Shown here piece after piece: positions 573 through 5,038 of a stretch of 11,570 nt of DNA; the first letter of the stretch is position 1; the number at the start of each line of letters is the position of its first letter. The notes under the pieces were generated by a model that was not told where the DNA came from, did not search any database, and saw only the letters and a list, made by a program, of their open reading frames with translations. The position numbers and the translations under genes were made by a program. Source of the stretch: a virus (taxonomy: Duplodnaviria; Heunggongvirae; Uroviricota; Caudoviricetes); IMG/VR virus record IMGVR_UViG_2778261346_000008, positions 1 to 11,570 of that record; one strand, 5' to 3'.

Positions 573-728
573 TCACCCACCTGAATTTCTTTCCAGCCAG
601 CGACGCGCTCCAGATTCGGTTTTAAACGTTTTGCTTTTGGTATACGTCATTGCGGTGAACGTACCGTCCTGGTTGGGGAACACGCCACATACCAGAGATT
701 CGCTGTTGCCAAGATCGATAGTATCCAT
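573..728 (-). CDS. hypothetical small protein (51 aa, MDTIDLGNSESLV...), possibly YdaF-like by position and size
   Basis: Internal ATG at 728..726 of the 78-aa track ORF has a GAGG Shine-Dalgarno about 5 nt upstream; the track start at 809 lacks a comparable RBS; stop TGA 575..573. Confidence 0.45.
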   Translation of the reverse strand: MDTIDLGNSESLVCGVFPNQDGTFTAMTYTKSKTFKTESGARRWLERNSGG

Positions 729-909
729 GCTGACCTCATTTCCCCTTAACGCCGGGGTAGCGGAACAAAAACCTGCTGCATAGTTATTAAAGTTGAACCC
801 TGCCGTCATGTTCTTACGCCTCGGGCTGGCTACTTAACCCCTGACCACTGCCTGGTAACTCGAGGTATTGCCCTGTATTGTGTGGGACGGGATGGGTTGG
901 TATGGGAAA

Positions 910-938
910 ACTATAGGAAATGCCTAATTACTTGTCAA
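910..938 (-). promoter_or_regulatory. PL-like leftward early promoter with operator
   Basis: On minus strand: TTGACA (938..933), 17-nt spacer, TATAGT (915..910). Embedded in a 21-bp element (932-952) that is the exact reverse complement of 1577-1597 on the other side of the repressor gene. Confidence 0.6.
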
Positions 939-1046
939 TAGGCTATGCCTAATAATTTGGGCGCAACCTAATAGGTGATGGTTTGTGGAAGAGGTAGTAG
1001 GAGTTAACTAACGGGAACTAGGAATTTCCCGTCGGACCATATAAGT

Positions 1047-1523
1047 TTAAGTTCCTGTCTTGGTGATGTTCTGGCTTTTCCGTTTTGATTCTTGATTTTT
1101 CAGATAGTTAGCTACCTTCATTTCCATTGCGGCAATGTAGGCGCGAACGTCATGATCAACCCAACTAGGCTCCGTAGCATTTCCAGATAAGATGAAAGCC
1201 ACAATTGCTCTTTTTTCATCAGAGGCGGCTTGATAAAGGCTGTTTATGTCTAAAAGTTCACTTTTTGTATCTGAAGTGGATGGGGTTGGTATGGGGTATT
1301 CGTTAAGCCCCCAATGCTCTGGACCAACCACATCAGAAAAGAAACGCCATAGTTCTGGAAGTTTGTCTTTACTTATCGAACCTTTCTTAATCCAGTCATG
1401 GATTGATGGTGGTTGGACTTTGAAATGACGTGCGATTTCCGCCTTTGATTTGACGGCTCCTGATGCAATTTTTTTGTTAATGGCCTGCTCTATCGCTCGG
1501 CCTAAGTCTTTACCACTAAGCAT
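1047..1523 (-). CDS. racR: cI-like prophage repressor, RacR-like (158 aa)
   Basis: ATG 1523..1521 with AGGAGA upstream; HTH-like segment AEIARHFKVQPPSIHDWIKKG near N-terminus; divergent from a Cro-like gene; flanked by inverted operator modules. Identity to Rac RacR is from memory of the sequence and the ydaS/ydaT synteny. Confidence 0.7.
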   Translation of the reverse strand: MLSGKDLGRAIEQAINKKIASGAVKSKAEIARHFKVQPPSIHDWIKKGSISKDKLPELWRFFSDVVGPEHWGLNEYPIPTPSTSDTKSELLDINSLYQAASDEKRAIVAFILSGNATEPSWVDHDVRAYIAAMEMKVANYLKNQESKRKSQNITKTGT

Positions 1524-1576
1524 TGCTTAATAGTCTCCTATGCGTATCGCGTTAGGCAATCCCTACTCTCGATGTG

Positions 1577-1620
1577 TTAGGCATAGCCTATTGACAATTT
1601 CATTAGGCTAAGCCTAATAT
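1577..1620 (+). promoter_or_regulatory. PR-like rightward early promoter with operators
   Basis: TTGACA 1591-1596, 18-nt spacer, TAATAT 1615-1620; TTAGGC half-sites at 1552-1557, 1577-1582, 1603-1608 and palindrome TTAGGCTAAGCCTAA at 1603-1617. Confidence 0.6.
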
Positions 1621-1648: not shown

Positions 1649-1972
1649 ATGAAAAAAGATAACTATTCATTCAAACGAGCTTGTGCTGTTGTCGGTGGGC
1701 AATCAGCAATGGCTAGGCTTTTAGGTGTATCTCCTCCAAGCGTAAATCAATGGATCAAAGGTGTACGTCAGTTACCTGCTGAGAGATGTCCTGCGATTGA
1801 ACGAGCAACAAAAGGTGGTGTCCTGTGTGAAGAACTTCGTCCTGATGTTGATTGGACATACTTACGACGCTCGTCATGTTATTCGCAGAATATGTCGATG
1901 AAGCAACCAAATGACGAAAACGATCATACCCGAAGCATCAAGAGGCAAATGATTCATGAAAATCAAACATGA
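1649..1972 (+). CDS. ydaS: Cro/YdaS-like HTH regulator (107 aa)
   Basis: ATG 1649 with GGAG 9 nt upstream; HTH-like segment QSAMARLLGVSPPSVNQWIKG; divergent from the repressor; 3' end overlaps next gene start. Confidence 0.65.
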   Translation: MKKDNYSFKRACAVVGGQSAMARLLGVSPPSVNQWIKGVRQLPAERCPAIERATKGGVLCEELRPDVDWTYLRRSSCYSQNMSMKQPNDENDHTRSIKRQMIHENQT

Positions 1973-4488: not shown

Positions 4489-4506
4489 GCCGCCCGAAAG
4501 GGCGGT
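4489..4506 (+). other. GC stem-loop with GAAA tetraloop abutting the RBS of the next gene
   Basis: GCCGCCC (4489-4495) GAAA (4496-4499) GGGCGGT (4500-4506): 7-bp stem with one G-U; no U-tract follows; 3' arm overlaps GGTGGAG and sits 10 nt before ATG 4517. Confidence 0.45.
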
Positions 4507-4516
4507 GGAGATAATA

Positions 4517-5038
4517 ATGGGAATAACTAAAGAACGATTGTTGGAAATAGCAAACCTTAGTGATTGGGCATTAAGTGATGAGAGAATTGTTTCTCCTCAT
4601 GCTTATGAGTCAGTTACAAGTATAGAAATAACAACAATGGCTAGAATGCTGCTTGGTTATTTCAAAATAGAAAATAAAAAACAGATGGATAGTAATGTTG
4701 ATATATGTGAGATTTTAGACGATTGGGGGGCTTGGGTTGTGGCTGGTAATAGTTCTATTGATTGGCAGGAAATAGCTGATAAATATAAAAATGTTGTTCC
4801 TCATGGTAAAAAATCACGTCGTCAGTGCAGCAATGATGAAGGGCGAATTATTGACATTAGTATCCTTATGTTAGAAAGATATAAGCAACAAGAATATGAG
4901 TTAATTGTTGCTCATTTCGTGATTGGTTTATCTCTTCGTGCTATTGCAAAGCAACAAGGATGTTCAGATGGAACAATTCGTAAAAGATTGCAAAAAGCCT
5001 TAGGTTTTTTGACTGGATATATAGCAATTACCAGTTAA
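4517..5038 (+). CDS. sigma-70 region-4-like HTH protein, putative transcriptional regulator (173 aa from ATG 4517)
   Basis: Track ORF starts at GTG 4505; ATG 4517 has GGTGGAG about 6 nt upstream. C-terminus ELIVAHFVIGLSLRAIAKQQGCSDGTIRKRLQKALGFL resembles ECF-sigma/LuxR region-4 HTH; AT-rich codon usage matches the island. Confidence 0.6.
   Translation: MGITKERLLEIANLSDWALSDERIVSPHAYESVTSIEITTMARMLLGYFKIENKKQMDSNVDICEILDDWGAWVVAGNSSIDWQEIADKYKNVVPHGKKSRRQCSNDEGRIIDISILMLERYKQQEYELIVAHFVIGLSLRAIAKQQGCSDGTIRKRLQKALGFLTGYIAITS

Follow-up and report, generated by a model that had tools for sequence, protein, structure and literature searches.

Genes of the racR locus

Within the window (the whole 11,570-nt stretch of DNA that was analysed), the prophage repressor gene racR lies on the minus strand, divergent from a gene for a Cro-like YdaS protein, which is followed by a gene for a CII-like YdaT protein and by replication genes, in lambdoid order (Table 1). 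The ydaS-like gene is the first of the rightward operon, and a gene for an HTH_36/DnaD_N protein comes after the ydaT-like gene. A YdaT-box (ATGATTCATGAAAATCAA) is present at 1949-1966. On the other side of racR, a DUF1391 gene, a 42-aa ORF and ydfC are co-oriented and, by the annotation of a prophage in E. coli O145, the leftward genes continue past the window edge with dicB, DUF1482, a RecE-like exonuclease and int. A sequence-only reading of this stretch had proposed an immunity region built around a 158-aa repressor; the racR ORF has exactly this length, and the order of racR, ydaS and ydaT bears out the assignment.

RacR passes the NCBIfam equivalog model NF049929 (246.3 bits against a cut-off of 200, residues 1-145), and searches of Pfam (E ≤ 0.01), PHROGs and PDB sequences with RacR gave no match. 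The protein does not have an autocleavage domain of the LexA/CI type (S24), and a published model of its C-terminal domain reports a different fold from that of CI (PMC11014345). RacR is therefore CI-like in its working but is not a CI-family protein. Because it stands outside the CI/LexA family, the lambda model leaves unexplained how the switch is flipped.

The 1.6 kb surrounding the inverted repeat described below match, with 100% identity, a Rac-like prophage found in E. coli O145 RM9154-C1. This prophage adjoins tRNA-Ser/mtfA and is annotated with racR, an HTH protein and a YdaT-family protein. It is defective, since int and the Q antiterminator gene are frameshifted. The 1.6-kb region is matched in 3,769 of 5,426 complete E. 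coli genomes. The racR-ydaS switch of the K-12 Rac prophage (PMC9638921, PMC5700373, PMC11014345, PMC11879457) is made of the same proteins (identities in Table 1), and K-12 Rac shares with the window the PydaST hexamers, their spacer, the operator consensus, the site at the racR ATG and the YdaT-box at the start of ydaT; YdaT sites have been mapped in K-12 Rac (PMC11879457). The two prophages differ in the tRNA-Ser/mtfA site occupied in O145 and in other left-arm genes (ydfC, dicB).

Table 1. Coordinates of genes, operators, promoter elements and repeat arms at the racR locus
Feature	Position	Strand	Basis and remarks
ydfC	195-413	co-oriented with the DUF1391 gene	
42-aa ORF	443-571	co-oriented with the DUF1391 gene	
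DUF1391, ydaF-like, 51 aa; first annotated gene of the leftward operon	573-728	-	Pfam/annotation
-10 TATAGT of the predicted PL-like promoter	910-915	-	Promoter scan; transcription predicted to start near 903
OL1, RacR-type operator	913-927		Minus strand TTAGGCATTTCCTAT; 2 mismatches; overlaps the PL -10 by 3 nt
Left arm of the inverted repeat	932-952	-	OL2 + -35 of the leftward promoter + 1 nt past the hexamer
-35 TTGACA of the PL-like promoter	933-938	-	Promoter scan; one nt in common with OL2
OL2, RacR-type operator	938-952		ATAGGCTATGCCTAA; 1 mismatch; fits (T/A)TAGGC-n3-GCCTA(T/A) (PMC9638921)
Possible weak OL3	957-971		TTGGGCGCAACCTAA; 2 mismatches; only one good half-site; 19 nt from OL2
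racR, prophage repressor, 158 aa	1047-1523	-	91% identical to K-12 RacR; RefSeq annotation racR
Degenerate operator spanning the racR start codon	1516-1530		CTAAGCATTGCTTAA; 3 mismatches; position of 'O3' in K-12
OR3	1552-1566		TTAGGCAATCCCTAC; 2 mismatches
Right arm of the inverted repeat	1577-1597	+	OR2 + -35 of the rightward promoter + 1 nt past the hexamer
OR2	1577-1591		TTAGGCATAGCCTAT; 1 mismatch; last base is the first of the -35; fits the degenerate consensus
-35 TTGACA of PydaST (PR-like)	1591-1596	+	Promoter scan; same element mapped in K-12 (PMC9638921)
OR1, perfect palindromic operator	1603-1617		TTAGGCTAAGCCTAA; 0 mismatches; overlaps the -10 by 3 nt
-10 TAATAT of PydaST	1615-1620	+	Promoter scan; K-12 counterpart (PMC9638921)
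ydaS-like Cro analogue, 107 aa	1649-1972	+	Pfam YdaS_toxin 3.8e-30, P22_Cro 1e-08; 85% identical to K-12 YdaS
ydaT-like CII analogue, 141 aa	1956-2381	+	Pfam YdaT_toxin; PHROG 163 CII-like activator 2e-47

Mirrored operator and promoter sequences on both sides of racR

The racR gene is flanked by a 21-nt exact inverted repeat: TTGTCAATAGGCTATGCCTAA at 932-952 is the reverse complement of TTAGGCATAGCCTATTGACAA at 1577-1597, as read from the letters and as returned by a repeat search. The two arms are 100% complementary with 624 nt in between, and they form the longest exact inverted repeat of the window. In 200 dinucleotide-preserving shuffles of the window, the longest inverted repeat measured 11-18 nt and never reached 21 (0/200), which rules out a chance origin. 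The identity reported by the sequence-only reading is thus real, but the 21-mer that it called a module is only the core (one operator plus the -35) of two mirrored modules of ~55 nt (O2/-35/O1/-10), or ~75 nt if a weaker third site is counted. Beyond the 21-mer, an alignment showed the mirrored modules to be similar rather than identical.

A consensus promoter scan of positions 700-2000 returned only two promoter-like sites, divergent from each other and both within operator clusters. The leftward site combines TTGACA and TATAGT across a 17-nt spacer (11/12 consensus matches), and the rightward site combines TTGACA and TAATAT across an 18-nt spacer (10/12); these are the same hexamers that the earlier reading had picked out. 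Its TTAGGC/GCCTAA half-sites held up as well. The palindrome TTAGGC-n3-GCCTAA, with up to two mismatches, is matched six times in the entire window, each time in one of the two clusters that flank racR, versus a mean of 0.35 and a maximum of 3 in shuffles.

The layout is common to both modules. Going along each promoter, O2 shares its last base with the -35, whose first T it is; after the -35 come four or five bases and then O1, whose final three bases are also the first three of the -10. O2 and O1 are 25 nt apart on the left and 26 nt apart on the right (start to start), which accounts for the 17- and 18-nt promoter spacers. Given the shared O2/-35 layout, the 21-mer amounts to O2, the -35 and one or two adjacent nucleotides: about 18 of its 21 positions belong to operator half-sites or to the -35 hexamer, with one base common to both, and the free positions are just the 3-nt operator spacer and no more than one base beside the -35. 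The 21-nt identity simply reflects the same double constraint, operator and -35, on both sides. It is also no fixed trait of the family. The left and right 21-mers of K-12 Rac agree at 20/21 positions; K-12 Rac has a left 21-mer identical to that of the window, followed by TATAGT at 1,419,631-1,419,626 on the minus strand of K-12 and placed between racR and ydaG, and its right 21-mer differs from that of the window by one spacer base (ACA versus ATA). Among the matches listed for viral contigs, the two 21-mers are identical in 21 of 51 distinct pairs, and the remaining distinct pairs differ at 1-3 free positions.

The geometry, perfect 21-nt repeats around a 624-nt segment, is by itself what recombination or transposition ends would look like, and racR could then be a mobile cassette or part of an invertible segment. 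We consider this extremely unlikely. The repeat is bounded by the limits of an operator and of a -35 hexamer, and each arm has additional operator copies next to it. No recombinase or transposase adjoins the segment, and flanking direct repeats are absent. Moreover, racR has one orientation in all 71 of the two-copy viral loci among the matches listed, with no inversion polymorphism. An invertible switch or mobile cassette was rejected on this single orientation and the absent recombinase.

The right module coincides base for base, in its functional elements, with the PydaST region of K-12, where RacR binding has been established by EMSA, ChIP-qPCR and DNase I footprinting in published work. 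There, primer extension found a single ydaS start site behind TTGACA-18-TAATAT, and substitution of the TAATAT (-10) abolishes PydaST activity (PMC9638921, NAR 2022). The RacR footprint is strongest over PydaST, which is protected at the lowest RacR concentration, and the operator consensus (T/A)TAGGC-n3-GCCTA(T/A) was drawn from the stretch that RacR protects against DNase I and from a cross-species comparison; three racR promoters were also mapped, one of them leaderless (PracR3) (PMC9638921). A comparison with published RacR operators, which the sequence-only reading had recommended, is favorable: the operators of the right module fit the K-12 consensus (PMC9638921), and the window has repeats over the ydaS promoter and the racR start, with the same positions relative to the promoter as in K-12. 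The degenerate operator at the racR start codon is kept in all relatives aligned and has an identical sequence in K-12 (PMC9638921). In later work on K-12, the 5' end of racR was described as having four inverted repeats; all four RacR operators were placed upstream of and inside racR, and xisR/intR were regarded as 'far away' from RacR (PMC11014345).

On the left, two good sites and one doubtful site between 913 and 971 lie over TTGACA-17-TATAGT; these were identified at the level of sequence. The third site (957-971) was downgraded, as it has one good half-site and its conservation is confined to Escherichia. The operator/-35/operator/-10 geometry is the same on both sides, in agreement with the earlier suggestion of PL-like and PR-like promoters with common operators, the left one being predicted.

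Conservation of the left module and expression of the leftward genes

The left module lies past the 3' end of racR and faces away from that gene, towards a string of co-oriented genes that starts 175 nt downstream. A scan of 700-2000 found no terminator, and racR and the left module have no intrinsic terminator between them. A hairpin at ~1016-1034, after the racR stop, lacks a U-tract and folds no better than shuffled sequences (z = -1.2). The leader of the predicted PL transcript likewise folds no better than shuffles (z = +0.95), so we do not propose a structured nut-like element. The first 40 nt of this predicted transcript are C-rich and G-poor (17 C, 4 G). Rfam, at its gathering thresholds, returned no known RNA in positions 1-2400.

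We looked at the conservation of the left module in two sets of loci. First, in a protein-anchored set, loci were found by similarity to RacR (57-91% identical) and nine distinct loci were aligned; this set is small but free of the pattern bias of the second one. It covers E. coli, E. ruysiae, Mixta, Proteus, Achromobacter and one MAG. An O2/-35/O1/-10 cassette that points away from the racR 3' end is present in seven of the nine, and it is retained also in loci with 1.4-2.3 kb of intervening cargo; in Achromobacter, it lies 1.6-2.3 kb downstream. In distant relatives, the left -10 drifts among functional variants (TATAGT, TAATAT, TAACAT and TACTAT). In a viral group with 57% RacR identity, the left cassette comes after a 389-aa cargo gene and an intrinsic terminator. 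The rexAB genes of lambda occupy a position that matches that of this cargo gene, as do paaA2-parE2 in the prophage CP-933P.

Second, a pattern scan of viral contigs yielded at least 119 loci, at least 107 of which have a RacR relative. At least 71 contigs carry a divergent pair of copies on either side of racR, 643-647 nt from each other, and among the matches listed the 5' end of racR is beside the TAATAT module in 71 of 71. The scanned pattern itself contains O2 and the -35, and therefore this set alone is no proof of conservation at those elements. Collecting and sorting this set fixed the O2/-35 positions and the -10 motif used for sorting; the promoter-proximal half-site of O1 was not fixed, and the distal half-site of O1 overlaps the sorting motif. 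Within this limit, the distinct sequences among the matches listed, 26 of the left type and 45 of the right type, have invariant half-sites and hexamers but variable operator spacers and linkers. The left-type sequences were classed by the presence of CCTATAGT, and TATAGT is invariant in these 26 (matches listed). OL1 is conserved in the 26 distinct E. coli-type left modules among the matches listed and also in distant relatives. This pattern of conservation in the sequences looks like a footprint.

Published expression data from K-12, including RNA-seq, point in the same direction. When RacR is lowered, ydaF, ydaG, kilR, ydaE and racC rise 40-70-fold or more and xisR/intR ~100-fold, and CRISPRi of racR, with Cascade at +3 or +58 inside the gene, derepresses the same leftward genes together with recE and recT (PMC6765115, PMC11014345, bioRxiv 2026.09.06.749655). 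Silencing of kilR has been attributed by one group to Rho-dependent termination of transcripts through racR, and a Rho-dependent terminator within racR protects cells from kil expression (PMC4150792). One could thus suppose that expression of the leftward genes depends entirely on transcripts that start at the racR promoters and read through when this termination (trac) fails, and that the left module is a functionless relic; the scan found no intrinsic terminator between racR and the left module, and the prophage is defective in any case, with frameshifts in int and Q. We regard this as very unlikely. A relic would not keep its half-sites and hexamers invariant in 26 distinct E. coli-type sequences (matches listed), nor would it be retained in other genera. 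Furthermore, the leftward genes are strongly derepressed despite a Cascade roadblock at +3 or +58 of racR. A Cascade block inside racR should stop read-through, which favors a separate promoter downstream. The Rho and PL views are compatible, as the first 40 nt of the predicted PL transcript, rich in C and poor in G, may let Rho act there too.

It is also conceivable that the left cluster consists of auxiliary operators only, serving as a looping anchor that tightens PydaST repression and tunes racR autoregulation, with hexamers that form no working promoter. RacR of K-12 is an octamer on size-exclusion chromatography (PMC11014345), octamers of lambda CI bridge OL and OR (cited in PMC8630535), and the operator clusters are ~640 nt apart, all of which would suit such an anchor. 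We nonetheless find this very unlikely. The left hexamers match the consensus at 11/12 positions with a 17-nt spacer; a recognisable -10 is kept in distant relatives, drifting among functional variants; the co-oriented gene string starts 175 nt downstream; and the leftward genes are derepressed upon RacR loss. Looping and promoter function can, moreover, coexist, as in lambda. The reading of the left module as the PL/OL of a Rac-type switch is a well-supported prediction.

The predicted left PL/OL has apparently not been described before for Rac; the right half is known experimentally in K-12. The papers that could be searched do not mention the left module, and a full-text search with the operator/-35 string came back empty; a description from the 1990s is possible. 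Neither the published K-12 Rac papers, mSphere 2017 among them, nor the 2026 preprint mention sites downstream of racR.

A probable Rac-type immunity switch

Taken together, the region very probably acts as the switch for immunity (lysogeny maintenance) in a lambdoid prophage of the Rac type, with both early promoters repressed by RacR. K-12 cannot do without RacR, since the repressor keeps toxic prophage genes silent. We propose that RacR dimers would recognise the palindrome TTAGGC-n3-GCCTAA and that, on each side of racR, a near-consensus sigma-70 promoter directed away from the gene would be combined with two such operators. As O2 reaches into the -35 and O1 into the -10, RacR on O1 and O2 would cover both hexamers. 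On the right, binding to O1/O2 would shut the rightward PydaST (PR-like) and with it ydaS/cro, ydaT/cII and the replication genes. On the left, binding to OL1/OL2 would shut the predicted leftward PL and with it DUF1391, ydfC, dicB, the recE-like exonuclease and xis/int. Autoregulation would come from two weaker sites (1552-1566 and 1516-1530) that overlie the racR promoters and start codon. For the left module, we infer that RacR binds, that the promoter is active and that the Cro-like YdaS acts there as well.

A repressor gene between mirrored promoter/operator cassettes is the lambda design; it is real and it is ordinary. Like the window, lambda has its repressor gene between divergent early promoters, with multiple related operators that overlap the -35 and -10 on each side and that have a comparable centre-to-centre spacing, 25-26 nt in the window and 23-24 nt in lambda. 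A leaderless repressor mRNA and an octameric repressor are common to lambda and Rac (K-12 data). The systems differ in several respects. RacR operators are 15-nt palindromes with a 3-nt spacer, unlike those of lambda, and OL and OR are only ~640 nt apart in the window, against 2.3 kb in lambda. A further difference is that YdaS reportedly does not repress racR (PMC9638921).

The closest parallel for a left promoter in a prophage of this kind is its sister CP-933P of E. coli O157:H7. As in the window, early promoters diverge from the two sides of the repressor operon, and YdaS is Cro-like and YdaT CII-like; the CP-933P promoters are PR933P, PRM933P and PL933P. The -35 and -10 of PL933P are identical to those of PR933P, there are three operators on each side, including three OL sites, and the repressor is octameric; in reporter assays, the cloned PL was repressed ~100-fold by PaaR2 and by YdaS (PMC8630535). 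The CP-933P operators are different, being GTTTAGTAA repeats; YdaS of CP-933P shares only 26% identity with its Rac counterpart, and YdaT only 31%. In CP-933P, a toxin-antitoxin pair lies between the repressor gene and PL, whereas the predicted PL directly follows racR in the window.

The published regulatory model of Rac covers only the racR-ydaS intergenic region. If true, a second RacR-controlled promoter, leftward and directly after racR, would be a simpler account than read-through or indirect effects of the joint rise of kilR, recET, xis and int when RacR drops, and a simpler account of Rac excision in that state and of the RacR octamer. Rac would then follow the lambda blueprint, as has already been shown for CP-933P. 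Rac is present in most E. coli. In practical terms, work to engineer recET expression or to stabilise Rac would gain a defined target in the left module.

Finally, an alignment of racR-ydaS intergenic regions bears on how the right copy arose. Compared with distant relatives, E. coli-type regions contain an additional unit of 25-26 nt. In the window, the homologue of the relatives' O2/-35 unit (TTAGGCAATTCCTATTGAC) has decayed to TTAGGCAATCCCTACTCTCGA at 1552-1572: OR3 aligns with the -35-bearing operator of those relatives, and the TTGAC after it is lost here. The working right O2/-35 unit is of the sequence type found in the left modules of many genera, and the right O2 of distant relatives is of a different sequence type. 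Because of the extra unit on the E. coli-type right side, the right copy may stem from the left module, and copying of the O2/-35 unit from left to right is plausible from the alignment. A combined scenario, in which the right O2/-35 was copied from the left and a RacR octamer bridges OL1-OL2 and OR1-OR2 in a ~640-nt loop, is one that we hold tentatively, as somewhat less probable than even. Such bridging would follow lambda CI and would depart from the published model, in which the octamer occupies four operators at the 5' end of racR. If it does occur, the ~640-nt loop, which would hold racR itself, would couple repression of the early promoters with racR autoregulation.

Operator units and cargo in the immunity region

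The racR-ydaS intergenic region of the E. coli type carries one more 25-26-nt operator unit than that of distant relatives (loci L007-L013). Judged by sequence, the ancestral O2/-35 unit (window 1552-1572) appears to have decayed in the E. coli-type region; the active O2/-35 unit of the right region is similar to the left-module type, i.e., to that of the predicted PL/OL. The operators are unchanged on L005 (JARKOR010000130.1), where a Rac-type region like that of E. coli encodes a RacR with 91% identity. L005 is 5.2 kb long and is assigned to a Candidatus Nanosynbacter MAG; it is probably a mis-binned Escherichia contig.

In three relatives (L011, L013, and L015), cargo separates the racR homologue from the left module. 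On L015, an intrinsic terminator comes directly after the cargo gene, and the O2/-35/O1/-10 operator-promoter cassette lies beyond it. PADLOC returned no match for the 389-aa product of the cargo gene (see table). We consider this gene a candidate for a lysogen-expressed defence gene in a rexAB-like slot.

The start of the predicted leftward transcript

The predicted leftward transcript has 17 C and 4 G in its opening 40 nt (window 866-905, minus strand), a rut-like base composition. We found no intrinsic terminator between the racR stop codon and the left module. Rho-dependent silencing of kil has been reported for the K-12 Rac prophage (PMC4150792), and these two features together may bear on it.

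A 13-nt sequence, GGGTTGGTATGGG, occurs as an exact direct repeat, with one copy a short way downstream of the predicted PL -10 and the other within racR, in the codons of the PIPTP linker. This repeat is possibly due to chance.

The YdaT-box and the state of the prophage

Across the start codon (1956) of ydaT, which encodes a CII analogue, lies ATGATTCATGAAAATCAA, which shows no differences from the 'YdaT-box' footprinted in K-12 (PMC11879457). It is the single match in the window at up to two mismatches. The annotation of the identical RefSeq record, L001, marks frameshifts in the Q-family antiterminator and in the integrase (window 4505-5038 and L001 575-1625), and the prophage is therefore defective; its immunity region is intact. 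In the late region of the prophage, a sok RNA and an overlapping hokD-like ORF constitute a hok/sok-type type I toxin-antitoxin locus. The window also contains a match to the STnc100 small RNA.

Coordinates of features in the window and on L015
Feature	Sequence	Position	Strand	Description
GGGTTGGTATGGG, first copy	window	894-906		13 nt
GGGTTGGTATGGG, second copy	window	1283-1295		13 nt
YdaT-box	window	1949-1966		
sok antitoxin RNA	window	7362-7537	+	Rfam, 113.7 bits
hokD-like toxin ORF	window	7475-7687	+	
STnc100 small RNA	window	11158-11344	+	Rfam, 115.4 bits, full length
Cargo region	L015	5440-6704		389-aa product: type I restriction HSDR_N (nuclease-like) N-terminus
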